The notes: generated by a model not told the origin, from the letters alone. Positions 1 to 24,860 are shown, counted from the stretch's first letter. The stretch is DNA of 32,000 nt from Candidatus Velamenicoccus archaeovorus (GCF_004102945.1 NZ_CP019384.1:1860001-1892000), one strand, 5' to 3'. Numbers and translations: made by a program.

Positions 1-18
1 ATTTATAGAGAGGGATCC

Positions 19-1242
19 TCATTTGCGCACCGCCCCCTTGTGATACAGCACGTCGATACCGGTCTCGATCGCCTTCTTGGCGATGTATTCATATGTGGCC
101 GTTTCAATCCGGTTCGCCCAGCAGTGATTCGCCGCCGGTTTCAATGGATTGCCGGTCACGGTGTAATTCTCAGCCAAGCACATTGCCCGCGGGCAACAGC
201 GGATATCGCCGTCAAAACAAACCTCGCAATCCCTGCAATGCTCGTAAAGCTCATCGATCCAATCGCCCATCTTTTTGAAAAAGAATGCCGTATCGTTAAA
301 CCCGCTCCACACATCCCCGATCTTGAACTCCGGATAATTGGCAAAAAAATCGCACGGGTATATCTCGCCCTTGTTATTCACAGCCAGATACAGATACCCG
401 CACCCGCAAAACGTGGGCGGCACGTCCTTGAGCGCGATACCTTTCAACTTGCGATAAATGTTGTTTTTTAACGCAATATCCCATTGACTCCGTCCGAACT
501 TCGGCTTGCCTGAAAAGTAAACGTAATCCGCAACGCGCCTAAACAAGTCCTTGAACTGCTCGTTCTTGTCCCTGACCATATCCCAATGCCGGGCCGAGGA
601 TATCCGCACCACTGGCACACCGTATTCATAAAGCCTGATAATCTCCTCATAGATCCCCGGCCGCTCCGAATCATCGACCACATAATGAACGTCTCCGCCG
701 TTGGCCTTCACAAGATCAAGCACCTCTCCTGCCTTATCCAGATATCCCTCTCCCAGAACGCCGCGCAAAGCCGATATGCTGACGCTCAAATTGAGGTGGT
801 ATTTATGCCTCAAAACCCATTCCCGAATGCCCGGATCATTCAAAAGAACCAACCCGTTTGTTGTCACCACATAGCGGTACATGCAATAGGTATCGCAAAG
901 GTACTGCACCATTGGAAAATTCAAGAACGGCTCACCGCCGAATATACTGAACTTGACGCGCCTCTCATCGAACGTGCGTGAGGCCCAGTCCTCGGCCGCA
1001 TCAATAACATCCCGCGTGATCCCGCTGTCCTTCTGCCTGAATTCCTTGGGCTGATAGCAATAAGCACAGCGCAGATTGCAGTCCTGCGTCATCAGAAAAT
1101 AAACCGTGGTGTATTCCTGCTTGCCGTCCGTTATCGAACCGATATCGAACATTCCCTCGGCCTTGTACCGCTTGATCACCTCACGGCACTGTAACGGCAA
1201 ATCGCCGCACGCCTTGCTATTCTTAAGCTCAAATACCGGCAT
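19..1242 (-). CDS. radical SAM enzyme with C-terminal SPASM-type auxiliary Fe-S domain (peptide/protein-modifying maturase family)
   Basis: 407 aa. It has the CxxxCxxC motif 'CNLRCAYCYQ' and the 'GGEPFLNF' SAM-binding motif. The C-terminal Cys clusters 'CGCGYLYLAVNNKGEIYPC' and 'CRDCEVCFDGDIRCCPRAMC' fit a SPASM domain. RBS context is GGAGGATTAATG at 1242. Confidence 0.85.
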   Translation of the reverse strand: MPVFELKNSKACGDLPLQCREVIKRYKAEGMFDIGSITDGKQEYTTVYFLMTQDCNLRCAYCYQPKEFRQKDSGITRDVIDAAEDWASRTFDERRVKFSIFGGEPFLNFPMVQYLCDTYCMYRYVVTTNGLVLLNDPGIREWVLRHKYHLNLSVSISALRGVLGEGYLDKAGEVLDLVKANGGDVHYVVDDSERPGIYEEIIRLYEYGVPVVRISSARHWDMVRDKNEQFKDLFRRVADYVYFSGKPKFGRSQWDIALKNNIYRKLKGIALKDVPPTFCGCGYLYLAVNNKGEIYPCDFFANYPEFKIGDVWSGFNDTAFFFKKMGDWIDELYEHCRDCEVCFDGDIRCCPRAMCLAENYTVTGNPLKPAANHCWANRIETATYEYIAKKAIETGIDVLYHKGAVRK

Positions 1243-1624
1243 TAATCCTCCAGTCCAGCTTGCTTAAGCCCGGCTCGATCTCCTCGATATCCAGCCCAAG
1301 CCTGTCTTTGAAGACCGTGCGATGCGTATCATTAAGCGCAACTACATGCGAGGCATAAATCTTGTCCCTGTGCTTCCCAGCCAGAAACAAAACAAACGCC
1401 GAAATATTGCCCTTGTCGCCCTCGACTCCCAGCTCCTGATAAACCTCGCATAGCGCATCTATGAGCGCTTGAACGCTCATGAACCGCTTATGCGTGAAAC
1501 ATTGAACGGTCAATTCATCGAGATTATTCCTGCACCAGTTAACCAGCTCGCTGACGGCGTTCTCGCCTTCCAGCCGCGCGATCCTGAACGATACTTCCTG
1601 TGCCTTTACCTGATCCTGAAACAT
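1229..1624 (-). CDS. hypothetical protein (131 aa) between the Cys-rich protein and the rSAM enzyme
   Basis: The track ORF 1229..1747 overlaps the upstream gene. The internal ATG at 1624 has the RBS context GGTGAGGAAATG and lies 4 nt after the upstream stop. Its 3' end overlaps the rSAM start by 14 nt. I recognise no motif. Confidence 0.55.
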   Translation of the reverse strand: MFQDQVKAQEVSFRIARLEGENAVSELVNWCRNNLDELTVQCFTHKRFMSVQALIDALCEVYQELGVEGDKGNISAFVLFLAGKHRDKIYASHVVALNDTHRTVFKDRLGLDIEEIEPGLSKLDWRINAGI

Positions 1625-1628
1625 TTCC

Positions 1629-2366
1629 TCACCATGAATAAGGGTTACATTTACAATTCCACGCGCTATGGTTATGCCCGCCCGAATACTCGCACGTCCC
1701 CCAGTTCGATCCCGGCGGCGTATATACACACCAGTCCCACGGCACATAGCCGTCCCAAGCCACTGTCGACAACGGATTGCCGGATGCCGACTTGTACGGA
1801 TGCTCTGTTACCGAAGGCAAGTTGATGCTGGCGCAAATCCAGTAATGATTGATCGAGTGGTGGCATTCCGAATATTTATGGTCATCGCACGCCACGCCCG
1901 CGTGAGAACAGGTCGTATAGTGATATCCGCAGTCCGCGCAATACTGGCACTGCTCAGTTTCACAGATACAGCCGGTCATGAGCGCCTGAACTTTCTGCAT
2001 CATCTGTCGGAAATGAATCCCCCTAACCTCCGTTGAAAGTGCCGTAATCGTTGGATCCGTAAAATCCATGCAACCGGAACTGTCCTGCGGGCAATATCCG
2101 GATTCACCGCGGCCCGATTTGCATGCCGCCAGTTCGGTACGCAATTGATCCACATGCACCTTCCGTATCTCTGTCACCAAAGCCGTGATCGTCGGATCCG
2201 TAAAAGACGCCTGCGTAAGCCCGCGCCGGGCAAACTCGGTGTTCAAAAACGACCTCAGCTCATCGACATGCACCTTGCGCACCTTTGAAGACAGATCCGT
2301 AAGCACCGGATCCGTCCAAGCCGGTGTATTCGATGAGCATTGTTTTGGGGGTAACTTATGCGCCAT
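1629..2366 (-). CDS. tail-module protein with three (W/F)TDPxxT...R..H...(L/M) repeats and a Cys/His/Trp-rich C-terminal domain (putative distal fibre or receptor-binding component)
   Basis: 245 aa, with RBS GGGAGAGATATG 8 nt after the tail-fibre stop. The repeats are 'WTDPVLTDLSSKVRKVHVDELRSFL', 'FTDPTITALVTEIRKVHVDQLRTEL' and 'FTDPTITALSTEVRGIHFRQMMQKV'. The last 114 aa contain 13 Cys, 9 His and 7 Trp by my count. Confidence 0.7.
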   Translation of the reverse strand: MAHKLPPKQCSSNTPAWTDPVLTDLSSKVRKVHVDELRSFLNTEFARRGLTQASFTDPTITALVTEIRKVHVDQLRTELAACKSGRGESGYCPQDSSGCMDFTDPTITALSTEVRGIHFRQMMQKVQALMTGCICETEQCQYCADCGYHYTTCSHAGVACDDHKYSECHHSINHYWICASINLPSVTEHPYKSASGNPLSTVAWDGYVPWDWCVYTPPGSNWGTCEYSGGHNHSAWNCKCNPYSW

Positions 2367-2374
2367 ATCTCTCC

Positions 2375-2866
2375 CTACGAAGCATAAACCGCCGTCTTAT
2401 CGAAAAAGCCCTTTGTCCCTGAGGCATTCGTTCCGTAATACTTGTTATTGCCGGGCGATGCCGCACCGCTTTCCAGCTTCGCGGTCGAAACCCCGCCGTC
2501 TTTCAACTGCAACTGATCGCCTGCCGACACCTGAAACATTGCCGTATCGATAAGCCCGTCCAGATATTCCGGCGTCGTATCGCTGACATCCGCCTTCAAT
2601 TTATTGGGCGAATTCTCAGTCGGAAGAACACCGGCCGCCGCTGGAACGCTGGCCAGCCCCGTCAAAGCAGTGCCGCTCACCTTGCTTGGCGAGGTTATCT
2701 GCGCCAGTTTCGTATCCTCTATTCCGGCACCCGGGGCAACTTTCTCATTGGTGATCTGAAGCGCAGGATCAGTCAACAGCTCCAGCGCCTCCCAATTGGC
2801 CCGGCACGCCGGAGGAAAATTGATCAAAAGCATGTCGTTTTCCGGTTTAGTCTTGTCCCAAGCCAT
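2375..2866 (-). CDS. tail fibre protein (short)
   Basis: The N-terminus 'MAWDKTKPENDMLLINFPPACRANWEALE' resembles the conserved N-terminal anchor seen in many phage tail-fibre proteins. It lies downstream of the J-like gene. I chose the start at ATG 2866 (RBS GAGAGGTGG) over the track start at 2899. Confidence 0.55.
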   Translation of the reverse strand: MAWDKTKPENDMLLINFPPACRANWEALELLTDPALQITNEKVAPGAGIEDTKLAQITSPSKVSGTALTGLASVPAAAGVLPTENSPNKLKADVSDTTPEYLDGLIDTAMFQVSAGDQLQLKDGGVSTAKLESGAASPGNNKYYGTNASGTKGFFDKTAVYAS

Positions 2867-3122
2867 CGCCCACCTCTCTTTTCTGATACGCCTCGGCAAC
2901 CGCGTTCATGTCGTAAAGCTCAATGCCGTGCTCGCGTAACATCTGGATCCAGCAGACATCATGTAGCGTCATCTGCCGGGCGTAGTTTTCTGCCTGCTCC
3001 GCGCATGTGAAAACAACCGGCTTCCTTTTCGGCATACGCAAAATAATGTCGCCCTTGACCGACATATACGCCATGTCATCCGGTATCTCTTTTTTGCATT
3101 TATTACAGATCAACTTGTCCAT
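2847..3122 (-). CDS. hypothetical small phage protein (N-terminal CxxC)
   Basis: 91-aa ORF co-directional with the tail operon, containing 'CNKCKKEIP'. I recognise no family. Confidence 0.45.
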   Translation of the reverse strand: MDKLICNKCKKEIPDDMAYMSVKGDIILRMPKRKPVVFTCAEQAENYARQMTLHDVCWIQMLREHGIELYDMNAVAEAYQKREVGDGLGQD

Positions 3123-3333
3123 CGCTCACTCCTTCCGACTGGTTCGCGTGCTTGATAAACTTCTGCAACACGCCGTTCAAGGTCGATTTATTAAACGCCG
3201 CGTCTTTAATCCCGATACTCTTGATCCGGCTGATCTGGCCGCCGTCATTGACTTTATATAAAATGACCCCGTTTAAAAACTCGCCTTTCTCAAACTCAAT
3301 AACCACCTTGTATGGAATCAATCCCTTTGCCAT
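3103..3333 (-). CDS. hypothetical small phage protein
   Basis: 76-aa ORF immediately downstream of the J-like gene on the same strand. I recognise no family. Confidence 0.45.
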   Translation of the reverse strand: MAKGLIPYKVVIEFEKGEFLNGVILYKVNDGGQISRIKSIGIKDAAFNKSTLNGVLQKFIKHANQSEGVSDGQVDL

Positions 3334-3341
3334 TACGCCTC

Positions 3342-6300
3342 CTAAATCCCGTGGCTGTGCCAGTCGAACATACCGGTCTGCACCACGCCCTGAGCGTCGT
3401 ACAGCTTCACCGTAAAGCCGGTGATGCTTTTATCCGTAAACTGCGAATAGATGCCGCTCCCGCTTCGAATCTCGATATGAACACTCGGCTCTTCGTGATA
3501 GGTCTTGCCAAAAAACACCTGCTTGCCGTCCACCGCCGAAACCACCGTATCGTTGCCGTAATCGTCGACATCCGGCAGATCTCCGAAATACTGAAACGTC
3601 GAACAGGTGATCTCATCGCCGATATTCTCGCGGTAAAGCGTGAGTTCAATCTGGAAATACCTGCAGTAATAATCGCCGGGCTGATAATTCTCCCAATCCT
3701 TCCATGTGATGTTGTCCTCTGACGTGCGGATCCGGAAACTGGCCGCGCGCAAGGTCTCCTGACCGGTAAAGCGGTAAGACGGACTGTCGTTGAATTTTGT
3801 GACACCGTCGGTATTAAACCGCCTGCCCAGCGAGGTCGAAACGATCACATCGATCCCGATATAAACACTGGCCACATACCCGAAATCCCTGACCGGTGTC
3901 GTATACGTCCCTGACATGACCCCGTCCGTGATCACGATCGACTCGCCTTCCTTTTCGATATTGTTCATCGCGCCTGCCCAAAGCGGCTGTTCCTGATACT
4001 CCGCGATGATATTTCTGAACGGAATCTCAGTGATCGTGACAACCGCCTCTTTTGCATTTACGGAATAATTGCCGGACGTATCGATCGCCTTGATCCAGTA
4101 CCGCTGGCCAATGCCGCGTTTGACATCCTTGGTGAGGTAATGCGTCCCCTGCTGAAGCGTGATGAACTCCGCGCTTTCCCAATCAAGGCCGCGCCGGATC
4201 TCATACCCCCACACATCCACATCCGGAATAGGCGTCCAGCCGAAATAAAGCATGTCCCTGTTGCGGTTAACCAGAAATGACGGCACATCCGAAGGCGGGG
4301 CCGATTTGCCGACAATCGTGATCGTGCTTTCAGGCGCGGTCGCAAGAGAACTCTCTTCGTTCAGGGAATCGAGCGAGGTCACCTTGACCTTGTAGGTCTG
4401 GTGGTCAACGATATCTCCGATGATCCTGAAATTCGTTCCCGAGGTTTCTCCCCGCGCGCGCCAGCTTAAACCATCATCATCGCTGATATATATTTTTGCC
4501 TTGGCATACGACTTGACGAAATGATCCACATAGGCTGGGCGGTCGAACCAGACATCGATCGCGTTCTCGATCGTTCCGTCTGCCTTCTTGACCAGCGACT
4601 CGGTCAGACTGAGGTTGCTGACAGCCGGGATCTCGCTCGATAAAGACGAATAGTTGTTCTGGGGCAGGATAATGTCCGAATCATCGTAAACCGCTTCGTT
4701 ATATTCCAGCGCGGATATCAGAACCTCGCTCTTGCCTTCGCGCTGGATCGATACGACCCTGAAATCCTTTTTGACCTTGTTTGTTTCGCCTATCGCGTAC
4801 ACATCGAAGCCCTGCGGATCCTGCGAAAACGCCTCGCACGAAACCTCCGCATGCGTTCCGGTCGGCGATGTGATAAGCCGCTCCTCGATCGTATCGTCCG
4901 CGAAGCGAACCTGAATCTTGTAGGACTTGCCGTCCTCAATAACCATCTCACGGTCTAATTTAACGAGCACATCCGTACTGCCGTCCTGCACCCTGCCGGA
5001 AAAGCCCCACTGCGGAACATCGTGCGATATCGAGATAACATCCCCTGCCTGACAAGCCACCGCATCGATCCCGGCCTTAAAACTAACCGACCGGTTGATA
5101 TACCGCGCCACCTTCAAGGCATAGCGCGCCGCGCGGATGGCATAACTTCCCCTTGTCGTAAAAAGCCGAATCTGGCTCTTGCGCATCGGCTCGCCTGATC
5201 CCAATAACTCCTCATCGATGTACGCGATCGTTTCCTGCTGATAGTTTTTCTCTTTATCGGTGAACTGAACCTCGATAACGTTCGGCACCTCTTTCAAGGT
5301 CTTCCAACTCTGCGCAAAGGAATCCTTGACGATACTGCCCATACCAAAGAGCTGTGTCGGCGTTGTCGGCCGGTCGATCCTAAAAGCCAGACCGCCCGCG
5401 CTGTATACCGGCATGGCATTGAACGTAGCGCAAAGCTGGATCAGGACATCAAGAGCCTTGTTGTTACTGTCGATCACCACATCCATCCGGAATCGTTTCT
5501 CATATCCGCCTTGGCCGTCCGGAACCCTCTCCTCGCAATACTGCGACATTTCAAGAAGCGACGCGTGATCCAGATTTTCTGATGCAATAAATTCACCCAG
5601 CCCGAACCGGCTGTTGATAATAAAATCCCTGAGGCACCAGACCGGATTCGCTGAATATCTCTGGGCAAACGACACGCCGTCCCACGAAAGCAAGGTGTCG
5701 TCCGCAAGCAAACGATAATCTGCACCGTCCCAGTAATAATCATCCCAAGCAACCGGATCCGTGCCGTTTTTGACATCCGGAACCGAAACCTTCCGCCCCT
5801 TTACAATCGAGGTAATATTCGGCATGGATCCCGAAAGCTGGTCGGTAGCCAGAAGCTGAAGCCCCAGAAGCGCGGTGTTCGGATAGCTCAAATCGTCTGT
5901 CTTGAGTTCATCGATCTGAAACAAAAGAAGATCGCCCTGTTTTAAGGGCTGAAGCGAACTATCCTCGCTGGTGCGGGTAATGCGGATATCGTACTGGCCC
6001 GGCGTAAGACCGGCCTTGCGGAATACGCGCCTGACTGATGAACGCGACTGCGCCGAAATCGTCGTCTCGCCCAGATCGATATACGTTCCTGAAGAATGCT
6101 CTTTATATTCAACCCGGTATGTAACGCTCCAGCTCTGGATATCCCCGGAGCTGGAATTCTGCTGATAGAGGCCGTTATTAAGCCGCAGGTGAATCTCAAA
6201 CGCCTCGACATCCAGATCGACCGTGGTGTAAATGTACGGATTGTTTTGCGTGAGGTTGGCGCTGACCGGATAAATATTGTGCAGATCCTCGAAATTCGGG

Positions 6301-6959
6301 ATCATGCTCTGGTAATTCGTACCGAAACGCTTGTTGACCGCAACGCCTTCGAAGTTATCGATTGGATTATTGTTAAGCTCGATATTTTCTATCGATTCGA
6401 TCTCGCCTTCACAGACAGCCAGAAGCACATTCAAATAATGCTTGTCACCGTCTTCCCATAGAAACTGATTGATGATATTGCCGCCGACCCGGTGCTCGCC
6501 GTAGACCACCGCTACCGGCACGCCGACCTCCTGAATCGTCTGAACGCCGTCCCAGCCATACGTGGGCGAACCCTCATCCATCCCGGCCGAGCCGAGATTG
6601 AAATCCGGCATTTTCGGCTGATTCATGTACTGATAAATGGCATACCCCATCGAGAGGACAAAGAACGTGAAAAGAAACGGATGCGCCACCGCGGCCGCCC
6701 AGACTGCCGAGATGATAAACGAAACAACTGCTACCACCGGCGCTTTGACCTCCGGCGCTACCACGATCTCGTCGCCCTCTTCAATACGCGAATCCAGATC
6801 TTCAATGCGTTTGCCGGTCACGATGACGCGTTTGTCTTTATAATCGAAGCCGGAATGCTCAAGATATTCGCGCACGGATTTGCTTCTGGAATAGGTGAAT
6901 TCCAGAACCGGAGCCTCTTCCGGCTTGAACGGATTGTCGATATTACGAACGGATATCAT
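3342..6959 (-). CDS. host-specificity / tip attachment protein J-like, with an N-terminal tail-assembly-protein-I-like segment (beta-grasp plus hydrophobic region) fused
   Basis: 1205 aa at the lambda J position, after the K-like gene. An FN3-like segment is present ('LYFGWTPIPDVDVWGYEIRRG'). The N-terminal ~110 aa carry a ThiS/MoaD-like 'GDEIVVAPEV' followed by a hydrophobic stretch, as in lambda gpI. Confidence 0.85.
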   Translation of the reverse strand: MISVRNIDNPFKPEEAPVLEFTYSRSKSVREYLEHSGFDYKDKRVIVTGKRIEDLDSRIEEGDEIVVAPEVKAPVVAVVSFIISAVWAAAVAHPFLFTFFVLSMGYAIYQYMNQPKMPDFNLGSAGMDEGSPTYGWDGVQTIQEVGVPVAVVYGEHRVGGNIINQFLWEDGDKHYLNVLLAVCEGEIESIENIELNNNPIDNFEGVAVNKRFGTNYQSMIPNFEDLHNIYPVSANLTQNNPYIYTTVDLDVEAFEIHLRLNNGLYQQNSSSGDIQSWSVTYRVEYKEHSSGTYIDLGETTISAQSRSSVRRVFRKAGLTPGQYDIRITRTSEDSSLQPLKQGDLLLFQIDELKTDDLSYPNTALLGLQLLATDQLSGSMPNITSIVKGRKVSVPDVKNGTDPVAWDDYYWDGADYRLLADDTLLSWDGVSFAQRYSANPVWCLRDFIINSRFGLGEFIASENLDHASLLEMSQYCEERVPDGQGGYEKRFRMDVVIDSNNKALDVLIQLCATFNAMPVYSAGGLAFRIDRPTTPTQLFGMGSIVKDSFAQSWKTLKEVPNVIEVQFTDKEKNYQQETIAYIDEELLGSGEPMRKSQIRLFTTRGSYAIRAARYALKVARYINRSVSFKAGIDAVACQAGDVISISHDVPQWGFSGRVQDGSTDVLVKLDREMVIEDGKSYKIQVRFADDTIEERLITSPTGTHAEVSCEAFSQDPQGFDVYAIGETNKVKKDFRVVSIQREGKSEVLISALEYNEAVYDDSDIILPQNNYSSLSSEIPAVSNLSLTESLVKKADGTIENAIDVWFDRPAYVDHFVKSYAKAKIYISDDDGLSWRARGETSGTNFRIIGDIVDHQTYKVKVTSLDSLNEESSLATAPESTITIVGKSAPPSDVPSFLVNRNRDMLYFGWTPIPDVDVWGYEIRRGLDWESAEFITLQQGTHYLTKDVKRGIGQRYWIKAIDTSGNYSVNAKEAVVTITEIPFRNIIAEYQEQPLWAGAMNNIEKEGESIVITDGVMSGTYTTPVRDFGYVASVYIGIDVIVSTSLGRRFNTDGVTKFNDSPSYRFTGQETLRAASFRIRTSEDNITWKDWENYQPGDYYCRYFQIELTLYRENIGDEITCSTFQYFGDLPDVDDYGNDTVVSAVDGKQVFFGKTYHEEPSVHIEIRSGSGIYSQFTDKSITGFTVKLYDAQGVVQTGMFDWHSHGI

Positions 6960-7446
6960 TTTTTAACCTGTAGAAACCTTCTGTTTTTGTTTTCCACGAC
7001 ACATCATCGAGCCGCGACACCACAACCCCCTGACGGCAACAATGGATAAAACGCCTTTTCGAAAGAACGATCCCCGCATGATTTGCCACTCCTTTCGAAT
7101 TGACGAACAATATCCCGTCCAAAACCTGCGGCGTTTCAACGCGATCCCAATCGTGGCCGTAATGCTCCCTGAAATAGTCCTTGCCGCTTAAACCCCACAC
7201 CTTGCTGTATTCCAGATCCTCAATATCGAAAAGCCTGTAACCGAGATCCGCATAGACGAGTTTTAGAAACCCCCAGCAGTCCAGCCCGTCTATCGTCCGG
7301 CCCCTGTGTCGATACGGTATCCCGAGATACTTGCCGATGATCGCCTTTTCTACATCACGTAGATTCTTCGCGTCGGCACGGATGGAAACGCCCCGAACCG
7401 GTGGTAATTCTCCAGCACCTTGCACCGCTGTTTGGTTTTGTTGCAT
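6943..7446 (-). CDS. NlpC/P60 (C40) domain tail protein, lambda K-like
   Basis: Catalytic-Cys context 'GLDCWGF' and a later His ('GVANHAGIV'). It sits between the L-like and J-like genes. The start at ATG 7446 has a strong RBS (GGAGGAGAGGTTTCATG). The track start at 7494 is probably an over-extension. Confidence 0.8.
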   Translation of the reverse strand: MQQNQTAVQGAGELPPVRGVSIRADAKNLRDVEKAIIGKYLGIPYRHRGRTIDGLDCWGFLKLVYADLGYRLFDIEDLEYSKVWGLSGKDYFREHYGHDWDRVETPQVLDGILFVNSKGVANHAGIVLSKRRFIHCCRQGVVVSRLDDVSWKTKTEGFYRLKNDIRS

Positions 7447-7961
7447 GAAACCTCTCCTCCGATATACCCGCATTCGGGCGACTTGAACTTCCACGCGCAG
7501 TAATTGCGCGCGTACCTGCGCGCGGGCAGATCAACGCCTAGAACATCGAACTTGCCGGTTAAAGTGAACTCCACGTTCTTCTGATCTGCCGTATAGCTGT
7601 CGATATAGAAAACGTCGTCCATATGCGCGTCCGGGTCCGTCAGATGGTCTGCCCAGACCATGCGGATCGTGACCTTCTTCCCGCGCAGATCAAACTGCTC
7701 CAGATATAGCTGAATCAGGCGTGAAACATTCCCCAGCCGCACCTTGACCTGATCGATCTGCCCCTGATTGTTCTCGCCGATAAACTCATGCGTGACCGGG
7801 AACTTCGAATAAACCTCTCCCTGATACGTCACATCCTGATCGAACCCCGCGATCCTCAAATCATTAATGGAGTCGTACTTTTCGAGAACGTATAAAAAGA
7901 TGGGCGCGTTCTCCTGTTTTGATTTCTCGCTTATAAAAGCGGGGCTGACATTTCTAGGCAT
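7350..7961 (-). CDS. minor tail protein L-like
   Basis: 203 aa at the lambda L position. It has a C-terminal four-Cys cluster 'CAWKFKSPECGYIGGEVSCNKTKQRC', like the Fe-S site described for gpL-family tail tip proteins. Confidence 0.75.
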   Translation of the reverse strand: MPRNVSPAFISEKSKQENAPIFLYVLEKYDSINDLRIAGFDQDVTYQGEVYSKFPVTHEFIGENNQGQIDQVKVRLGNVSRLIQLYLEQFDLRGKKVTIRMVWADHLTDPDAHMDDVFYIDSYTADQKNVEFTLTGKFDVLGVDLPARRYARNYCAWKFKSPECGYIGGEVSCNKTKQRCKVLENYHRFGAFPSVPTRRIYVM

Positions 7962-8299
7962 TGCTTCACCTCTATAAAATCAAACTCGAAGTCGTACACC
8001 TCATACGCCTTCATCGTGTATTTAAAACTGTCCTCGGCAAACCGAACCGTATACTCCACGGCATCGTTCGGGTTCGTCCATGTGAACGCCATAAACGAGC
8101 CGTATTTCGCGGAAAAGAAATTCCGCATCATCTCCATGTCCGCCTTTGACCTGCTGGAAAACCTGAGACGCCATTTGTGTAACGGCGCCGCCCACTTGCG
8201 CCTGCGCTGTTCAACGCCGCTTTCAAACTCCGAAATAAGCGTCTTGTATTCCAGCGTCTCTTCGAAAACAAAATCCGGTAAATAGCTAAAATCACTCAT
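7931..8299 (-). CDS. minor tail protein M-like
   Basis: 122-aa ORF directly after the tape measure, overlapping it by 4 nt. The call rests on synteny with lambda H-M-L-K-I-J only. Confidence 0.55.
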   Translation of the reverse strand: MSDFSYLPDFVFEETLEYKTLISEFESGVEQRRRKWAAPLHKWRLRFSSRSKADMEMMRNFFSAKYGSFMAFTWTNPNDAVEYTVRFAEDSFKYTMKAYEVYDFEFDFIEVKQCLEMSAPLL

Positions 8300-10071
8300 G
8301 CGTAACTCCTGATCACCGAACGGATCTTCCCGTTGTTATAAATGTCATCGGCAATGGCATTGGAAAGCATCTTGCGGTTGCGCCAAACGTCCTGCGCGTC
8401 CCACGCCTGAATCACCTGATTGACGTTGATCGTGACACCTTCCCCGCGCATAGATTCCCCGCGGTTAAGCGCGCGAAGGTTGTCCGACCCGCCCACCGCC
8501 TGCATTCCCCTGCGGGAAAGCACGCCTTCGCCCGTTTGCGCGATGATCGGCACCTCATCCGGCGCAAGGCCCGAATGCGCCCGGATAAACGCCCGGTTGC
8601 GCTTTTCGACCGTTCCTCCGCTATGAAACAAACTCGCCACCGGCACACCGAAAATCGTGCCGCCAGCACCGGCCATCGCCGTAAATATCTTTATGAGTAA
8701 CAGCTTCGCCAAGATGTTTGAGATCATCTGCAGAACCGCCCGGCCGAAATCAGCGAACACCTCTTTGACACTGCGAAGCTCACCCGTAAACGCCTTGAAG
8801 AAAAACTGCGAGAACGCGTTCTGCATGTTATGCGCCGACTGCTTGGCAAACTCTTCCATGACGTTAAACTGCTGGGCGGCCGCTTCCGCGCTTTTCCCCA
8901 CATCCTTGGCCACGTTCTTCAATATCTCCGCTGTCTTGTCACCAGTCTCCTTGACCTTGGCAAACACAAGGTCGTACTGATTCATCGCGTCCCGCGCGCT
9001 TTCCTGCGCGGCCAGATTGAACGCCGTGCGCGCCTCTTCAAGCCCCTGAGTAAGACCCTCGACATTGAACTGAATCTTGTTCTCTTCCAGCGACTGCGAA
9101 AACTTCTCTACCTCCGCGGACGCCTGCCGGTATGTTTCACCGACACTGCCGGGAAGTTTTCCCAAAAGGTCGTAAAACTTAATGAGCGGAACCATGAGCG
9201 CCTGAAAGAAATCGACCGCGAAACCCAAGAGGCCGTTCAAGGCATTCGTTATGCCCTGAATGAACCCTTTGACCGCACCCGCGCCATACTCAAGGATCGT
9301 GAAAACACCCGCCACCAGATGATTGGCAAACCCCTGCAGAAACCCGAGCACCTGCCAGAGCGCCTGCCCTGCCTTTTCCATGAAATCATTCCACTGGGAT
9401 TTGAGCATCTGCACCTTTTCGTAGCTGGTCATCATCTCGAGATTCACTGCCTCAAGGTGCGATTTACTCTGCGCGAGAATATGATTGGCCAGAGCCTGCG
9501 CCATGTGGTATTTCTGAACTTGCTCGACGGTCTTGCCTGTTGCCTTGGCGTATTCCTCTGCCGCGTCTTTAAGCGACAGCTGAAGTCCATACGACCGTCT
9601 CAAGGTCGTGACCAGACCGCCGGTGACCGCGCTTGAAATATTTTGAAACGCCTCTTCGGTCGTAGTGCCGAATATCCTCGCCTCGGCCCGAGCCTGTTTC
9701 ATGAGCGCCGCGACCTGATCCATATTCAAGCCCTGCGCCATGAGAGCCGAAACCTTGTCCGCGACATTGGAGAAATTAACCGTCTCCTTGGAAGCCTCCA
9801 TGATCGACTGCCGCATTTTTTGCGCGTCTATGCCGACGCTCTCTGCCATGCGGCTGAAACTCTGCTCGATCTGCTGGGCCTTGGCTCCCATTTCCATGAG
9901 ATCCCACGCCTTGCGAAGCGCCATGATGCTGGCTGTGATGGCCGCGGTGATCGCAATCCAATTCTGCTTCCATGCATTGGCGAATCTCTGCAGGTTGCCG
10001 CGCACGCCTTCAAGGCGCTTGGTCGCCTCGTCCCTGAGGCGCAATATGATCGAGAGTTCTTTATTCGTCAT
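8296..10071 (-). CDS. tail tape measure protein
   Basis: 591 aa with a long Ala/Gln/Glu/Lys-rich helical-looking sequence and a Gly-rich hydrophobic segment 'FTAMAGAGGTIFGVPVASLF'. It follows the G/G-T chaperone pair. Its start forms an ATGA overlap with the T-segment stop. Confidence 0.85.
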   Translation of the reverse strand: MTNKELSIILRLRDEATKRLEGVRGNLQRFANAWKQNWIAITAAITASIMALRKAWDLMEMGAKAQQIEQSFSRMAESVGIDAQKMRQSIMEASKETVNFSNVADKVSALMAQGLNMDQVAALMKQARAEARIFGTTTEEAFQNISSAVTGGLVTTLRRSYGLQLSLKDAAEEYAKATGKTVEQVQKYHMAQALANHILAQSKSHLEAVNLEMMTSYEKVQMLKSQWNDFMEKAGQALWQVLGFLQGFANHLVAGVFTILEYGAGAVKGFIQGITNALNGLLGFAVDFFQALMVPLIKFYDLLGKLPGSVGETYRQASAEVEKFSQSLEENKIQFNVEGLTQGLEEARTAFNLAAQESARDAMNQYDLVFAKVKETGDKTAEILKNVAKDVGKSAEAAAQQFNVMEEFAKQSAHNMQNAFSQFFFKAFTGELRSVKEVFADFGRAVLQMISNILAKLLLIKIFTAMAGAGGTIFGVPVASLFHSGGTVEKRNRAFIRAHSGLAPDEVPIIAQTGEGVLSRRGMQAVGGSDNLRALNRGESMRGEGVTINVNQVIQAWDAQDVWRNRKMLSNAIADDIYNNGKIRSVIRSYA

Positions 10072-10391
10072 CGCTTGAACCTGTCCCTTCTTTTCTGCAT
10101 CTCCTGCTCGATTGCCTGTAGTTCCTTTTCGATCACTTCAAAAGCATCGAGCATTTTGGCCGACTGGTCGATCCAGCCGCCCGCGTTCGGCAGATAACCC
10201 TGCCTGTAAAACTGAAATGCCCTTATAAAGCTCGCCGACTGTCGTGTGACGATCTTAAAAGGGCATCCTCGGTACTGCGTTCCGTTAAGCTCCCAGACTT
10301 CCTGCCCAGGCACTTCATACTCACATCGTATCTTTCTCCCGCTTAAACAGCTCTGGCAGTTCACGGTGAGGCCGCCCAAATGAACCGCCAC
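10068..10391 (-). CDS. T segment of the tail assembly chaperone, expressed as a G-T fusion by -1 frameshift from 10394..10819
   Basis: It lies in the -1 frame relative to the upstream ORF, and that frame is open across the slippery site. The only in-frame start is a GTG with no convincing RBS, which fits expression by frameshifting. Confidence 0.65.
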   Translation of the reverse strand: MAVHLGGLTVNCQSCLSGRKIRCEYEVPGQEVWELNGTQYRGCPFKIVTRQSASFIRAFQFYRQGYLPNAGGWIDQSAKMLDAFEVIEKELQAIEQEMQKRRDRFKR

Positions 10392-10393
10392 GA

Positions 10394-10819
10394 TCAGTTT
10401 TTTTGCTCGCCCTCCGACAGTTTCGACTCGTTCAAAATGACCTCAGCCAGCTCCTGCCTCAATTCGTTCGGGAACATCGCAATGATCCTGTCCGGAACAA
10501 CGTTTCTCATCTTGCCCGCGTAATGAATCGTGTCGAACTTAAGCTCGATCGGCTTCTTGGTCTCGGGATCCAAAAAATTCGTCAGGCCCTTCAGCCCGAA
10601 CTTGATCGCCGTGATCTGCCGCTTGTTCCAGTTGAGTCTGACCTTGGCCTTGTCGTTGGGATTGGTCGAGCTCATCTCATACGTACTGCTTTCATCGTCG
10701 ACCTCTGCTCTCAACACCGGATCCAAAAGTCCAATATGAAACACGCTCGGATTCTCTTTGTCCGGGTCAAGTTTTGACACATATTCACGCGTTGCATTGA
10801 CATCAATTCCTGTAAGCAT
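10394..10819 (-). CDS. tail assembly chaperone (lambda G-like)
   Basis: 141-aa acidic protein between the major tail protein and the tape measure. It ends at the slippery site. Confidence 0.7.
   Translation of the reverse strand: MLTGIDVNATREYVSKLDPDKENPSVFHIGLLDPVLRAEVDDESSTYEMSSTNPNDKAKVRLNWNKRQITAIKFGLKGLTNFLDPETKKPIELKFDTIHYAGKMRNVVPDRIIAMFPNELRQELAEVILNESKLSEGEQKN
10397..10403 (-). promoter_or_regulatory. -1 programmed ribosomal frameshift slippery heptamer A_AAA_AAC
   Basis: The minus-strand sequence reads GAG CAA AAA AAC TGA. The X_XXY_YYZ heptamer lies in the correct phase directly before the G stop codon. Confidence 0.7.
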
Positions 10820-10833
10820 AAGCCGCCTCCTTT

Positions 10834-11985
10834 TTATAAAAGTAATAATGCAAGTTCATCATCCCCCGGCTCCATCGAACCGGTCAGATCGAACGACGTC
10901 TGCGCCAGCTGAATGCCGTCGCGGTCGCCGTCATCGACCTTGTTGTAAACAATGCTGGGCGCGTAGAACCGGAACTTGTTGCCCTCGGTTTCTCCGTACG
11001 CCAAATCAAGAACCATCGGCGTATTACTGAACCACTTGGAGAAGAAATCATGCGAAGCAACCGGCACCATTTCCGGATTAAACGACCCCTGCATATCCCG
11101 GCCGGTGATCATGTAGGATAAAATCCCCTTCGCATCGTCGATCTTGTCTTTTGAAGCCAGCGTGTTCGATACGTCGATCTCCATCTCGCCGACATTAAGC
11201 GACACGCCGTCGCAGGACATGACCGCGTTCAAAAGCACCGGCGGCACCGTATCGTCGAAGCTCACGCCGGTAAACATCGGAGTGTCCGTGACTCCATGTT
11301 CAACGCCCTTGAAGCTGAAATCGAGCGTGGCCGGTTCGCCGATCTTGAAGTTGAACTTGACCGTCCCGCGGCAACCTTTAAGAAGCTTCGCCACGCCGTC
11401 CTCATAAAGCCCCATGGTCAAAGAAACCACAGAACTGCTGATCGGTTTTATTTCAAAACCCGCACTTGCCGGATCGGATAAAGCGGTCGAAACCGCGCCT
11501 GAATCCGCGCCTGTTATGTGATCTCCGGTCTCGAATACTCCGGTGAGCGCGACATAGTAAAGCGATGCCGCACCGTTTGCGGTCTTAATGACAACCCGGC
11601 CGGTTGCACCCGACGTATCACCGGTAATCACCTCTCCGTGCCTGTAAGGCCCGCTGGTGATCGCACCGATCGAAATCTTCTTGAGCGCGTTCGATTGAAA
11701 CCCGCAGGCCCTGACCAGCCGCATCCACTCCGGCTCAAGCGTAACCGATCCCGAACCTTTCAATTCAATACTGAAATCGATCCCGGCCGATCGCTTCCCC
11801 GCGAGCTTGCCCATCTTGGTCAAAGACGCGCGCACAGGATCCCTCTGGTACATCTGCGGATCGTAACTTGCCTTCGGTGAAAAATTCACCAGAATGCCTG
11901 CGTCGGCCGCCAGAAGTGTTTCCGCAGAACCTTCGACCGCCTCGATCTTCGCCGCAAGCTGGCGTTTTCTTATGAGCATTGACAT
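10834..11985 (-). CDS. major tail (tube) protein, with an internal insertion domain
   Basis: 383 aa at the lambda V position, between the connector genes and the chaperones. It has an internal duplicated 'GEVITGDTSGATGRV' / 'GDHITGADSGAVSTA' motif. The call is by synteny. Confidence 0.6.
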   Translation of the reverse strand: MSMLIRKRQLAAKIEAVEGSAETLLAADAGILVNFSPKASYDPQMYQRDPVRASLTKMGKLAGKRSAGIDFSIELKGSGSVTLEPEWMRLVRACGFQSNALKKISIGAITSGPYRHGEVITGDTSGATGRVVIKTANGAASLYYVALTGVFETGDHITGADSGAVSTALSDPASAGFEIKPISSSVVSLTMGLYEDGVAKLLKGCRGTVKFNFKIGEPATLDFSFKGVEHGVTDTPMFTGVSFDDTVPPVLLNAVMSCDGVSLNVGEMEIDVSNTLASKDKIDDAKGILSYMITGRDMQGSFNPEMVPVASHDFFSKWFSNTPMVLDLAYGETEGNKFRFYAPSIVYNKVDDGDRDGIQLAQTSFDLTGSMEPGDDELALLLL

Positions 11986-12000
11986 TGCAATCCCTCCCTT

Positions 12001-12468
12001 TTAGTTCTTTGCTGTCGGATCCGTCCGCAAATGACGATAGCGGACGCGAACCTCCATGATGATCCCCGCGTACGGCTGTGCCTCGGTCGTCTCAAACGGC
12101 GTTGTCCCTAAAACATCCGTATCAACTGCGTTGCCCGCGCGCGTGGAGTCCTGCAGGATCGCTTTCTTGATATCACCCTGCAGTCTGTTCAAATATGTAT
12201 CGGTCGGCACCGGGTCGTTCTCATCGTTCACGAAAAATATGTCGAGATACAAAGTTAAAAGACATTCTTCGAACGGATTTGGCATGCTCGACTCATCCTC
12301 ATCGCCCGGGCTGATCACCACCATCGGCATATCAACCATTCTGTTGCCGTGCATCGACCAGCGCTGTACGGTGGCGGGCGTAAAATCGAAGTTGTACCCG
12401 TTAGCGATCGTCACGCCTTCAAGTACAGTCTTGATGTTTTGCAATATCCGCTCTCTGACCGTTTCCAT
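12001..12468 (-). CDS. tail terminator / tail completion protein (gpU-position)
   Basis: 155 aa directly upstream of the major tail gene. The N-terminal pattern 'RERILQNIKTVLEGV' is typical of this class. The call is by synteny. Confidence 0.45.
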   Translation of the reverse strand: METVRERILQNIKTVLEGVTIANGYNFDFTPATVQRWSMHGNRMVDMPMVVISPGDEDESSMPNPFEECLLTLYLDIFFVNDENDPVPTDTYLNRLQGDIKKAILQDSTRAGNAVDTDVLGTTPFETTEAQPYAGIIMEVRVRYRHLRTDPTAKN

Positions 12469-20023: not shown

Positions 20024-20618
20024 TCTGCTTCCCCGCAAATTGTTCGATGATGTACCTGATTTCCTGATCAAGCATTTCACAAATAACCTTCGGATCCTGC
20101 TGATAGAGTTTCGGCGCAATATGCTTCGGCAAACGAAGGAATCCGGCCTTGATGCCCCGGATCTGGTTTTTAACGATAGAAACGTGATCCTCGAAAGGGA
20201 TGACTTCCCCTTCTTTCTGCTTTAACTCGATCTCGCTCAGCTTCGCGCGGTTCTTGCGATATTCCTTGTCCCAGTAATCCTTGCCGTTATCCTCTTCCGA
20301 TCCCTGCTTCTTATAGAACCACTTGAAGACATCCCCGACCTTAAACCGCGCGATCTCACCGACGGCGTCCCTGAAGACCGGCATGCCCTGCTGGACATAC
20401 CGCCTGATCATCCGCGGGGATTTCTCGAGGTAGACACATAATGTCGGCAAGTCTACCGTTCCATCGATAACCCCCGCAGGCCGCTGTTCTGATTTCTCGA
20501 ACTCCTCAAGCTCTTTAAGCTCCTTGGACGACAGCGAACCGCGCCCCAGCTTTTCGACAAGGGCGATGTAACGTTTTTTCTTGGCAATCTCAACAAGGTT
20601 GCGGTTCTTTTCATCCAT
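19992..20618 (-). CDS. terminase small subunit (HTH DNA-binding)
   Basis: 208 aa directly upstream of TerL and overlapping it. It has the HTH-like segment 'LCVYLEKSPRMIRRYVQQGMP' and charged coiled regions. Confidence 0.6.
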   Translation of the reverse strand: MDEKNRNLVEIAKKKRYIALVEKLGRGSLSSKELKELEEFEKSEQRPAGVIDGTVDLPTLCVYLEKSPRMIRRYVQQGMPVFRDAVGEIARFKVGDVFKWFYKKQGSEEDNGKDYWDKEYRKNRAKLSEIELKQKEGEVIPFEDHVSIVKNQIRGIKAGFLRLPKHIAPKLYQQDPKVICEMLDQEIRYIIEQFAGKQNANKAGKGNS

Positions 20619-21915
20619 TACTATCCCTTATCGCTTTTTTCCCTGAAAATTCCTCCCAGCGCCTGACCGCCACGTCACAGAAGACCGGCTCGATCTCCAT
20701 GGCAAACACCCTACGGTTCAGCCTCTCGCCAGCGATAATTTGCGATCCCGAACCGGAAAACGGCTCATAACAGACATCGCCCGGGGTTGTATGAACCCGC
20801 ATGGGTATGGCAAAAACCTCGGTCGGCTTAACGGTTGGATGATCAAGGCCCGGATTGCGCTTTTTGCCTTCCCAGTCCAGCTCCCAGACATCGGTGTGAT
20901 ACTCCGGCGTTTCCGGATCGCCAGTCCTTAAGAAACCAACCGTCCAGACACTGCCGATCGCCTTGTTTTTGGGCTTATACTCCGGCTTATGGCCTTTGAC
21001 CCACATCAAAAGGCACGGTTCATGCCGCCACGAATAAAACGAGTACGTCAAAATGACGCACGGCTTGACCCACACGATTTCCTGATGGATTAAAATACCG
21101 ATCTCTTTGCAGAGGCCCTCAATATCCGAACGCCGCTTCGAAGCGTGCCACATATAAAGCGCGGTCTTTTCTTTAATGAAACCGAGGCCCACGGTTAAAA
21201 ACTTGCGCATGAAATCCACCGCGTCCGGGATATCGATCTCGTGATAGACATTCGACCAGTCCCGGCCGCCGTTGGGCCTGTCCGCACCGGTATAATCCAC
21301 GCAATACGGCGGGTCGGTTGCCAGAAGACTTGCCTTGCGGCCATCCATAAGCCGCGCGACATCTGCCTCGCTGGTAGAATCCCCGCACAAAAGCCGGTGT
21401 TCGCCAAGGATCCAGAGATCGCCCTTCTTGGTGATCGGCTTTTCGGGCGGCTCCGGGATATCGTCCGGAAGGGTCTTTCCGCTCCCCAGATTCTCGACAC
21501 CCATATCCCCGACACTCTCCCGCAGGCTTTGAAGCCGCAAGTTGAGATAATCATCACCGGCTTCTTTTCTCAACCTCTCCAAAAGCGGGATCAAGGCGGC
21601 CGTCCACTGACCGGCAATCTCGCTGTTATTAAGCGTCACGTTCATGGCCTGCTCTTGGATTTCGTCCAGATCGACCATGATGACATCGACCTTTTCGACC
21701 CCGTCAGCCTGCAAGACCTTATACCGCTGATGGCCGGACACAATCCGCATGTTCCGTTTATTAACGATCAAAAGATCCACATACCCGAACTTCTCCAAGC
21801 TATGCTTAAGCCCCGCATAGGCAGGCTCGGTTATTTCCCGGGGGTTGTACGGTGCCGGTTTTAACTCCTCCACCTTGACCTCAACGATTTCCGGTTTAAC
21901 ATTGATTTTTGCCAC
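20611..21915 (-). CDS. ParB-like nuclease domain fused to an N6A/N4C DNA methyltransferase (beta-class, DPPY)
   Basis: N-terminal ParB-type domain ('LKPAPYNPR', 'VSGHQRYKVL'). Methyltransferase motifs are 'HRLLCGDST', 'LLATDPPYCVDY' (motif IV) and C-terminal 'YEPFSGSGSQIIAGERL' (motif I). GTG start with RBS AAGGAGAAAATC. Confidence 0.85.
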   Translation of the reverse strand: MAKINVKPEIVEVKVEELKPAPYNPREITEPAYAGLKHSLEKFGYVDLLIVNKRNMRIVSGHQRYKVLQADGVEKVDVIMVDLDEIQEQAMNVTLNNSEIAGQWTAALIPLLERLRKEAGDDYLNLRLQSLRESVGDMGVENLGSGKTLPDDIPEPPEKPITKKGDLWILGEHRLLCGDSTSEADVARLMDGRKASLLATDPPYCVDYTGADRPNGGRDWSNVYHEIDIPDAVDFMRKFLTVGLGFIKEKTALYMWHASKRRSDIEGLCKEIGILIHQEIVWVKPCVILTYSFYSWRHEPCLLMWVKGHKPEYKPKNKAIGSVWTVGFLRTGDPETPEYHTDVWELDWEGKKRNPGLDHPTVKPTEVFAIPMRVHTTPGDVCYEPFSGSGSQIIAGERLNRRVFAMEIEPVFCDVAVRRWEEFSGKKAIRDSNG

Positions 21916-22976: not shown

Positions 22977-23234
22977 TCAAGAAGAAACAACTTCATACCA
23001 AGCCATGTTGCCCTTGAGGTTACGCCGGATGCATTCATCCTTGCCGACCTTCCTCACGATGCCCTGCAGAACAAAATCCCTGATCGTCCTCTCGGCCCGC
23101 AAATAATATTTTTTAGTCCCGTACGCTATGACCTCGGCCTTCGAGAAGATCCCGCGTTGCCTGCACCAGCGTAAAAGCTGTTCTTCTTTTGATAAAAATT
23201 TGTCCGGATTATCAATCGTCTCCATTGTTTTCAC
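22977..23234 (-). CDS. hypothetical small early protein
   Basis: 85-aa ORF co-directional with and immediately upstream of the initiator gene. I recognise no motif. Confidence 0.5.
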   Translation of the reverse strand: MKTMETIDNPDKFLSKEEQLLRWCRQRGIFSKAEVIAYGTKKYYLRAERTIRDFVLQGIVRKVGKDECIRRNLKGNMAWYEVVSS

Positions 23235-23249
23235 CTCCCCGAAACCAAT

Positions 23250-23567
23250 TCATCTGGCCCAGATGATCCAGCCCCACAAGGCCAAGAAAAAGTACACAAC
23301 GAACAAAAACGACTGCGCGTATAAACGCTTCCTAAAATCGATCACTGCCCAGCATGCGTTCGTAAACATCCACACCAGAAACCCGGCCGGATCTTTATTC
23401 ACGTTCAGGACAACACCGAAGATGGAGAGGCCCGCGAGCATCCACATCACCAGCTCTCTAAACTCTTTCGGGTCCTTGCCGAACGGCCGGTTGGCTTCAA
23501 CAAGCTTGCGCCGGTTATACCAGCTCAGGCTTTTATAGATTTCTTTCCATCCCTTATTGATTTTCAT
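23250..23567 (-). CDS. small 3-TM membrane protein (weakly PnuC-like)
   Basis: 105 aa with three hydrophobic helices. The Trp-rich motif 'WMFTNACWAVIDF...ALWGWIIW' is reminiscent of PnuC-type repeats. Confidence 0.55.
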   Translation of the reverse strand: MKINKGWKEIYKSLSWYNRRKLVEANRPFGKDPKEFRELVMWMLAGLSIFGVVLNVNKDPAGFLVWMFTNACWAVIDFRKRLYAQSFLFVVYFFLALWGWIIWAR

Positions 23568-23839
23568 AGTTCGTTGCTCCTCCTTATCCTTTCTACGGAA
23601 AATTTATCTTCACCGACTTTACGGGTCATCAGACCGATAAATATTTGCGCAATATATTCACCAACCTCACTTGAAGCATCGATAACCGCCTTATCATTTG
23701 TTGCTAGATATGCCGCATGAAGTCTTACTTTAGCCTGGCCGAAAGCATATTCTGCAGTTTCAATAGCGCGGGCTATTTGCTTCTCGATGTTTCTCTTGCC
23801 TATCTTTTCGTGGAATTTAAATCTGCATACATCGGTCAT
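23564..23839 (-). CDS. hypothetical early protein
   Basis: ATG 23839 is preceded by GGAGGCAATAAAG. The track start at 23854 lies inside that RBS. It is the first gene downstream of promoter copy A. Confidence 0.5.
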   Translation of the reverse strand: MTDVCRFKFHEKIGKRNIEKQIARAIETAEYAFGQAKVRLHAAYLATNDKAVIDASSEVGEYIAQIFIGLMTRKVGEDKFSVERIRRSNEL

Positions 23840-24854: not shown

Positions 24855-24860
24855 GCAAGA

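Follow-up and report, generated by a model that had tools for sequence, protein, structure and literature searches.

Enzymes that combine a radical S-adenosylmethionine (rSAM) core with a SPASM domain include several that cross-link Cys residues of a gene-encoded substrate. QhpD makes Cys-to-Asp/Glu links in the protein QhpC, installing several such thioethers in a subunit that acts outside the cytoplasm and replacing disulfides there (PMC7876137), and PapB requires the donor Cys to be followed, on its C-terminal side, by the acidic acceptor (PMC12373016). A third enzyme of this kind, CteB, is represented by the structure PDB 5WGG (PMC7876137). Here we analyse a 32,000-nt stretch of the genome of Candidatus Velamenicoccus archaeovorus (NZ_CP019384.1:1860001-1892000, hereafter the window), in which a 245-aa Cys-rich protein (1629..2366) and an rSAM/SPASM enzyme of 407 aa (rSAM-A or rA; 19..1242) are encoded in the tail module of a prophage, with all the cassette genes on the minus strand. 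On a related contig rA proves to be the first of three paralogues, which we call rA, rB and rC. We lean slightly towards a reading in which the 245-aa protein acts as the tip of a tail fibre or as an accessory to it, and its C-terminal domain is cross-linked by the three enzymes, likely through Cys-to-Asp/Glu thioethers. The conserved system, in which rSAM maturation like that of peptides made on ribosomes and modified after translation (RiPPs) would be applied to proteins of a phage tail locus, is apparently undescribed.

The enzymes share with PapB (NF047865) and CteB an rSAM core with a CxxxCxxC motif and a SPASM domain, and as in those systems the candidate substrate is a Cys-rich product encoded next door, with acidic residues C-terminal to Cys as PapB requires. 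They differ in scoring 95-163 bits against the PapB cut-off of 340 and in having no N-terminal RiPP recognition element (RRE). Moreover, three paralogues accompany each candidate substrate instead of one, this substrate, with two domains and 245 aa, is no short leader-core peptide, the genes reside in a phage tail module, and there is no protease or exporter; scans of the cassette genes against Pfam, NCBIfam and PHROG returned no peptidase or transporter family. QhpD is likewise an rSAM/SPASM enzyme whose family (TIGR03906) is among the matches of rA, rB and rC, but at 51.7-62.7 bits against a cut-off of 453 and without qhp-like neighbours. QhpC, for its part, is an enzyme subunit with a quinone cofactor and not a phage protein, and it has a 28-residue leader that is cut off by QhpE and is exported via QhpF, whereas no such genes occur here. 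The maturases of CXXX-repeat targets (TIGR04115), with CcpM, CefB and TIGR04463, resemble the present case in pairing a dedicated SPASM maturase with a Cys-repeat substrate. A literal C-xxx-C-xxx-C tail is found in two relatives of the locus (L091 and L092, described below), and rA and rC match TIGR04115 at E 6e-21 and E 5e-25, although with 75-89 bits against a cut-off of 350; the Cys repeat there forms the C-terminal end of a fibre-like phage protein instead of a free peptide. Set against a classical RiPP cluster, the locus is distinguished by the lack of a leader peptidase or exporter and by the confidently predicted folded N-terminal module of its candidate substrate.

On the phage side, the nearest parallels are the J-stf-tfa region of lambda and the H-G fibre region of P2, which the locus resembles in its place right after the J or baseplate genes, in the exchange of the downstream unit among relatives, and in an upstream protein with a conserved N-terminus and a variable C-terminus. 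It differs from known fibre modules in the presence of rSAM enzymes of its own, for which our literature search yielded no precedent. The original prediction for this DNA had known of no phage structural protein matured by an rSAM enzyme, and the full-text search, whose coverage left out subscription-only papers, found none either. The match of rA to phrog_1802, 'radical SAM domain-containing protein' (E 3.5e-26), means that phage genomes are already on record as containing SPASM-type rSAMs; this family, however, has no functional or substrate annotation, and the matches among deposited phages are 23-25% identical and lie on unannotated gut contigs.

Results

Linkage of the Cys-rich protein and the rSAM enzymes

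The original prediction described a substrate, accessory and maturase cassette in a tail module and proposed co-occurrence as a check. Homologues of the 245-aa protein form 45 clusters, nearly all metagenomic, and we examined 62 loci around them. An rA-type gene was found in 55 of the 56 loci having at least 400 nt downstream of the Cys-rich gene; in the one exception (L006) the contig ends 32 codons into an rSAM. Where at least 4.2 kb was available downstream, rA, rB and rC followed in that order in all but one of 36 loci, the other (L051) having two rSAMs. The reverse search started from the rA clade, which comprises about 59 clusters, all scoring at least 265 bits; the next match falls to 112 bits, and below it are generic SCIFF-type enzymes. 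Of the clade members on long contigs, the three that diverge most (35-42% identity) each lie directly after a protein of the Cys-rich family, in which all the invariant Cys are retained, and the linkage persists down to 32% identity and over at least four tail-module backbones that are unrelated to one another. By these searches, the Cys-rich family and the rA clade are both small and are linked in both directions. Two divergent cassettes, L051 and L064, the latter found via its rSAM, have two rSAMs and are missing the rB type. A loss of Cys that would match the loss of rB in such loci was considered, but no clean correlation emerged on inspection.

The Cys-rich gene, rA, rB and rC are the sole genes common to all the backbones in which the cassette occurs. 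The first backbone is a J-type siphovirus tail module (74-100% J identity), and a second J-type, with about 30% J identity, has a different upstream fibre-like gene encoding 348 aa. In the third (L001 type), the cassette is preceded by 103- and 148-aa genes with weak tail-fibre PHROG matches and followed by genes for 125 aa and 440-790 aa. The fourth consists of myovirus-type baseplate clusters (gp25/W, PAAR, Phage_base_V and Gp80; for example L003/L065), and a few additional divergent loci provide further contexts. The cassette lies on the same strand as its neighbours and is tightly coupled, between J/p163 and the p96/Lcl_C genes, and in several backbones large structural-looking genes follow it. 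As judged from these comparisons, candidate substrate and maturases co-localise and are inherited together, as in classical RiPP systems, and their position on the late strand of tail or baseplate clusters is what would be expected of fibre proteins. The substrate and maturase parts of the predicted cassette have thus stood up, linked both ways in several backbones; the accessory part, assigned to a 131-aa open reading frame (ORF), has not, and there are three rSAMs, not one.

The Cys-rich protein

The C-terminal domain of the 245-aa protein (residues 133-245; 1632..1970, minus strand) is the putative rSAM substrate region. An exact recount of the last 114 aa gave 13 Cys, 9 His and 7 Trp, in agreement with the original figures, which corresponds to 11.4% Cys as against 0.7% in the J-like protein encoded upstream. 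Over 94 unique sequences of the family, ten Cys of this domain are at least 95% conserved (C133, C135, C140, C143, C146, C153, C160, C178, C238 and C240), as are E136, E138, D145, Y142, N182, W210, W222 and W236. With C10 and C92 of the N-terminal half, which are equally conserved, 12 Cys reach this level. The most conserved segment of the protein is C133-G147, and the conservation as a whole is far beyond chance. Within the domain, acidic residues are placed C-terminal to Cys in C133-x-x-E136, C135-x-x-E138 and C143-x-D145, a spacing that is suggestive of the donor-acceptor geometry of PapB and of the Cys-to-Asp/Glu links that QhpD forms in QhpC.

The N-terminal module (residues 1-132; 1971..2366, minus strand) contains three copies of TDPTITAxxTKxRKxHIDELR beginning at residues 18, 56 and 103. 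Each copy comprises an extended segment and one helix, and in the AlphaFold2 (AF2) model the helices span residues 31-47, 69-84 and 116-131 with a predicted local distance difference test (pLDDT) score of 80-90. The score for the whole protein is 65, with 30-60 for the C-terminal domain. A profile search of 1.84 billion representatives returned 4,316 proteins at E <=1e-3, of which about 13 also span the C-terminal domain and the rest match the repeat module only. Among its carriers are proteins with RHS repeats or with cadherin or BACON domains, one small protein that has a signal peptide, and a beta-helix/FN3 protein that matches the 'minor tail' and 'central tail fiber J' PHROGs. Because the module occurs by itself in more than 4,000 proteins, the N-terminal half is best regarded as a generic extracellular or virion-surface module and not as a RiPP leader. 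The idea that the three repeats provide one leader for each rSAM was rejected, since the module is generic and found without an rSAM context, and loci with two rSAMs still have three repeats. The wider consensus is WTDPTLTAGxTxIKAVHIxELRTAI, again in three copies, in carriers of 90-2,263 aa that often have the module at the extreme N- or C-terminus. There is no model for it in the Pfam release used; a pre-existing tag, PF27469.1, on the homologue P0007, which may stand for the module, was not reproduced by our Pfam scan.

For the 245-aa protein itself, we obtained no Pfam, NCBIfam or PHROG family, nothing significant by Foldseek against PDB and BFVD or by profile search of PDB sequences, no usable tblastn match among deposited phages, and no signal peptide. 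Two architectures in the wider family stand apart. P0011 (421 aa; L063:2623-3888) has an extra Tyr/Thr-rich N-terminal domain of 175 aa, for which there is no Pfam match and which may resemble carbohydrate-binding modules, fused to a complete Cys-rich protein. In P0176, a metagenomic protein of 151 aa, the repeat module is joined to a different and extremely Cys-dense tail, ECICNCNYCACDCNCTCHCCTCNCDHYHSW, which suggests that there are more substrate classes beyond those at this locus.

The three rSAM enzymes

The assignment of the 407-aa product as an rSAM/SPASM enzyme was confirmed by both Pfam Radical_SAM and NCBIfam TIGR04085, the latter matching residues 279-365 with 32.5 bits (cut-off 27). 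Against the gathering threshold of 29.5 bits for Radical_SAM, rA and rB are only just above (31.7 and 29.7 bits) and rC is at 61.4; with the Pfam SPASM model (cut-off 21.5) rA falls below at 16.1 and rC lies above at 25.2. The CxxxCxxC motif, which ligates the radical-SAM [4Fe-4S] cluster, reads CNLRCAYC in rA (residues 55-62; 1057..1080, minus strand) and is retained in every unique full-length orthologue (41/41 for rA, 33/33 for rB and 31/31 for rC). A SPASM-type auxiliary-cluster region in rA (121..408, minus strand) contains ten Cys, at residues 279, 281, 297, 336, 339, 342, 349, 350, 355 and 374. Nearly all orthologues of the three enzymes have 6-10 Cys in their last 140 aa (median 10 and minimum 4 for rA), and auxiliary Fe-S clusters are predicted for these regions.

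The best NCBIfam match of all three enzymes was the PapB ranthipeptide maturase (rA 104.5, rB 94.6 and rC 162.7 bits), followed by SCIFF, Nif11, CXXX-repeat, QhpD and CcpM maturases. None reached the equivalog cut-off of 340 bits: PapB is the nearest family, and rA, rB and rC do not belong to it. For both rA (E 1.4e-15) and rC the best solved relative was 5WGG, with alignments that begin at chain residues 91-93. The RRE of CteB occupies its first ~90 residues. The rSAM motif of rA, rB and rC begins at residue 55, ~17 and ~26, respectively, and so none has a fused N-terminal RRE. The paralogues are only 19-25% identical to one another, as compared with 57-62% for orthologues across phage backbones, indicating that the triplication is old. 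In their profile matches the enzymes group with the PapB, SCIFF/CteB and QhpD maturases, which cross-link peptides or proteins, and not with the housekeeping rSAMs that the original prediction had allowed for, and they are linked to the Cys-rich protein.

Exchange of cassettes next to the fibre-like gene

Upstream of the cassette is a J-like central tail fibre/tip protein of 1205 aa (3342..6959, minus strand), which matches phrog_31, 'central tail fiber J', at E 3.3e-158; a 94%-identical orthologue contains Pfam Phage-tail_3 and FNIII-A_GpJ. Two small ORFs, p76 (3103..3333) and p91 (2847..3122), stand between J and the fibre-like gene p163 (2375..2866, ATG start), all on the minus strand; neither has a Pfam or PHROG match, and both are kept alongside J and p163 in all J-type loci. 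The order p163, 245-aa gene, 131-aa ORF (p131; 1229..1624) and rA was confirmed on the minus strand, with junctions of an 8-nt gap, a 4-nt gap and a 14-nt overlap. A GGAG-type Shine-Dalgarno sequence precedes each of the four starts, as had been predicted (TAGGGAGAGAT-ATG, GGTGAGGAA-ATG, TGGAGGATTA-ATG and AGAGAGGTGGGCG-ATG). The 'tail fibre' label originally attached to 2375..2866 drew no backing from homology: p163 had no Pfam, NCBIfam, PHROG or structure match and no usable tblastn match among deposited phages, and the label derives from position and domain pattern. A supposed homology between p163 and the 148-aa upstream gene of L001-type loci was rejected.

Across relatives, the N-terminal 156 aa of p163 are conserved and the C-terminus is variable, with four C-terminal variants. 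Using J as the query, we collected 28 viral loci with at least 2.2 kb downstream of J. The cassette is present in 14 of them, while six at ~75% J identity keep p163 without it. At ~68% J identity, the phages L112-L116, L135 and L138 have a longer J and lack both p163 and the cassette. The six loci that keep p163 without the cassette form three groups, each with its own arrangement in the same slot. In L090 and L093, a protein of 191-200 aa has the same three-repeat N-terminal module (25% identity over 146 aa, E 3e-6) and a different tail, CCECEC(TC)n...CCSECDCGD with three H-x-H motifs; it is accompanied by a 428-aa rSAM/SPASM enzyme and then a 450-aa rSAM with a weak, sub-threshold B12-binding match (L090:14673-17876; L093:14472-17691). 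In L091 and L092 it is p163 (85% identity over residues 1-156) that has a C-terminal extension, of 99 residues, with the CXXX repeat C-TGS-C-NSG-C-TGT-C-QGG-C-GGS-C-DG-C at its end. Thereafter come a 263-aa protein of unknown function, an rSAM of 293 aa in which no SPASM domain is obvious, and another rSAM of 378 aa (L092:8061-11634, and likewise L091). All four rSAMs of these alternative cassettes score above the Pfam Radical_SAM threshold. Finally, no rSAM is present in L094 and L095, where a longer p163 is accompanied by a non-Cys protein of 291 aa; a LamG-like assignment for this protein in L094 was unsupported by Pfam.

The p163 C-terminus reads '...AVYA[S/T/P]' in 52 of 52 loci with a separate repeat-module protein (type I or II) and has another ending in the four loci without one. 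This end (window 2375..2400) may be a docking motif, although few independent events underlie the pattern. The conserved N-terminus and variable C-terminus of p163, the cassette exchange and the Cys-tail fusion in one lineage follow the pattern of phage receptor-binding modules, and in combination they tie the Cys-rich rSAM substrates to the fibre.

Discussion

Proposed maturation pathway

We propose that the 245-aa protein is expressed late and would most likely make up the distal portion of a short fibre, of the side or tip type, after J, p76, p91 and p163, with its N-terminal module probably serving in folding, oligomerisation or docking. Before assembly, in the anoxic cytoplasm of the host, rA, rB and rC would modify the C-terminal domain, most likely by installing several intramolecular Cys-to-Asp/Glu thioethers of the ranthipeptide or QhpC type, or related cross-links. 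This would yield a knotted, disulfide-free domain, compact and resistant to proteases and to redox conditions, which the tail would display as an adhesin or receptor-binding tip. Substrate and enzymes would move among tail modules as a cassette that other pairs of Cys-rich tail and rSAM can replace. The steps of this pathway differ in strength. That the rSAMs act on the Cys-rich protein is highly probable and is the best-supported step. The case for display of this protein on the virion is modestly favourable, and the thioether chemistry is favoured by a narrow lead. The adhesin or receptor-binding role is putative. A broader generalisation, that phages of anaerobes build tail-tip adhesins via swappable RiPP-like cassettes with at least three chemically different versions per locus, is tentative and falls a little short of an even chance.

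Several points weigh against this proposal. The presence of the 245-aa protein in the virion and its modification are both deduced from sequence and gene context, and neither it nor p163 resembles any known fibre, tailspike or chaperone family in sequence or fold. Because all three enzymes score far under the PapB cut-off and have no fused RRE, the chemistry cannot be transferred by orthology; the conserved Trp, His, Tyr and Asn could serve as alternative cross-link partners, and a Cys-rich domain of this kind could bind Zn or Fe-S instead. The N-terminal module is also found in RHS-type proteins, which may be toxins. Many of the sampled loci are close relatives, so that the independent observations are fewer than the locus count and amount to about five backbones and four slot variants.

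The same features allow other explanations. The cassette could be a prophage 'moron' encoding an rSAM-cross-linked, non-virion toxin, bacteriocin or signal of RiPP-like type, released at lysis or by the lysogen and acting on competitors or on prey or partner cells of the host. A substrate beside multiple SPASM maturases does resemble a RiPP cluster, the presence, absence and swapping of the cassette among close relatives is as seen for morons, in the related contig L011 the cassette lies near the lysis-like end of the late region, and the RHS-repeat carriers of the N-terminal module would suit a toxin. We nevertheless consider this explanation unlikely: no signal peptide, leader peptidase, ABC exporter or immunity gene was found in the cassettes examined, and a protein of 245 aa with a folded N-terminal domain is unlike bacteriocin precursors. 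The cassette always lies within the tail or baseplate gene run, on the same strand and translationally coupled, with structural-looking genes following in several backbones, and in L091 and L092 the Cys tail forms part of p163, which is itself conserved beside J.

It is distinctly improbable that the C-terminal domain is simply a structural Zn or Fe-S binder while the rSAMs act on another tail protein, a glycan or a cofactor, even though its dense CxC and CxxC motifs and conserved His resemble metal-binding motifs, AF2 is unable to fold it without ligands, and glycosyltransferase genes lie near some cassettes. Since all backbones have in common just the Cys-rich gene and the rSAMs, there is no conserved protein that could be an alternative substrate; three independent alternative cassettes again combine a Cys-rich tail with rSAMs, and all the enzymes are nearest to cross-linkers of Cys in peptides or proteins. 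The number of conserved Cys is even in total (12) though unevenly split, and together with the invariant acids beside Cys this fits donor/acceptor pairs. An assembly factor is also conceivable, in the form of a tail-fibre chaperone or scaffold in a Tfa/gpG-like position, where the rSAMs would modify chaperone or fibre transiently. The place of the Cys-rich gene right after a fibre-like gene mirrors that of fibre assembly proteins, and in myovirus-type loci it sits where P2 gpG-type chaperones sit. This is the explanation to which we give least credence, since three iron-sulfur enzymes are hard to rationalise for a non-structural helper, the Cys tail at the C-terminus of p163 and the extra N-terminal domain of P0011 point to a displayed terminal domain, and searches of Pfam, NCBIfam and PHROG revealed no similarity to Tfa or other chaperone families.

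If cross-linking of a tail-tip protein is correct, rSAM/RiPP-type chemistry would be extended from small secreted peptides and QhpC to structural proteins of viruses, the first time that post-translational maturation by radical-SAM enzymes would be seen for a structural protein of a virion. It would also represent a new receptor-binding principle, in which a tail-tip domain is 'stapled' by enzymes and this capacity travels together with the fibre gene as a mobile unit, and would provide large protein scaffolds with multiple cross-links from a new natural source. For enzymology, three old paralogues that would act on one 113-residue domain without an RRE offer a tractable case of order and site selectivity, and possibly a tool for making multiply cross-linked proteins. 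For phage ecology, the system suggests how phages of strict anaerobes might stabilise extracellular adhesins without disulfides. It is unexpected for the phage and rSAM fields alike, in an uncultured host, and the analysis also flags an undescribed three-repeat extracellular domain with more than 4,000 representatives.

The 131-aa ORF

The original prediction cast p131 as the accessory component. It is confined to J-type Omnitrophota prophages: we found 31 homologue clusters that are all at least 48% identical, and homologues at 29-33% identity in the second J-type group, giving a range of 29-100% over two J-type lineages. It is absent from the L001-type and myovirus-type cassettes. The profile searches that had been suggested for both products, which detected Radical_SAM and TIGR04085 on the 407-aa protein, returned neither an RRE nor any Pfam, NCBIfam or PHROG family for p131, and its AF2 model (pLDDT 53) gave only noise in Foldseek. 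By its distribution, p131 is lineage-specific and lies outside the conserved core. With so narrow a family and such a model, the idea of an RRE or chaperone is without support; equivalence with the ~125-aa gene after rC in other backbones was ruled out, there being no similarity.

Prophage setting and sibling contig

The end of the window at rA had given the impression that the cassette closes the operon, which is an artefact of the window edge. The sibling contig L011 (IMGVR_UViG_3300029959_001261) is 95.6% identical to window 1..12365 and encodes an identical 245-aa protein. In L011, rA is followed by rB (a 361-aa rSAM), rC (a ~387-aa rSAM/SPASM enzyme), a 96-aa protein, an Lcl_C/DUF1566 protein and small membrane proteins, with lysis-like genes near the end of the late region. 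The Lcl_C/DUF1566-domain protein (183 aa; L011:14904-15455) scores 98 bits in Pfam and has homologues in most J-type loci. In siblings the 96-aa and Lcl_C-domain genes persist irrespective of the type of cassette in the slot, which places the rSAM cassette within the fibre/adhesin run and not after it. The only strong terminator of L011 lies at 17485-17522, after the last phage gene, and straight after it come the host BREX genes BrxA, BrxB and a BrxC-like ATPase (L011:17822-20394), marking the other prophage end. A promoter and terminator scan found the cassette region no different from background.

Family scans of the window proteins showed that the window is mostly a compact siphovirus-type prophage, in the right-to-left order serine recombinase, replication initiator, ParB-methyltransferase, large terminase, portal, major head, tape measure, minor tail, J and cassette. 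The source annotation lists the cassette genes as 'hypothetical' throughout. Close relatives lie on contigs of Candidatus Omnitrophota metagenome-assembled genomes (some bins being labelled Planctomycetales) that reach 820 kb, and the elements are therefore prophages of Omnitrophota; no DNA match for the region was found among deposited phages or E. coli genomes. The serine recombinase (25411..27507, plus strand) probably marks one prophage end. Past ~27.5 kb, lower-GC genes resemble host DNA and encode an MBL-fold protein, a class-3 lipase and the TdeIII restriction endonuclease with its methylase (28024..31979). No tRNA was found within the window. Over ~23000..32000 the GC content drops from ~0.53 to 0.39-0.45. 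A fusion of a ParB-like domain with a DNA methyltransferase (20611..21915, minus strand; phrog_498, E 8e-103) is encoded just upstream of the terminase, a location typical for a phage anti-restriction methylase. In the low-GC part of the prophage, a 190-aa protein (23904..24476, minus strand) matches sigma-70 region 2 with 26 bits (gathering threshold 24) and may be a phage-encoded sigma factor.

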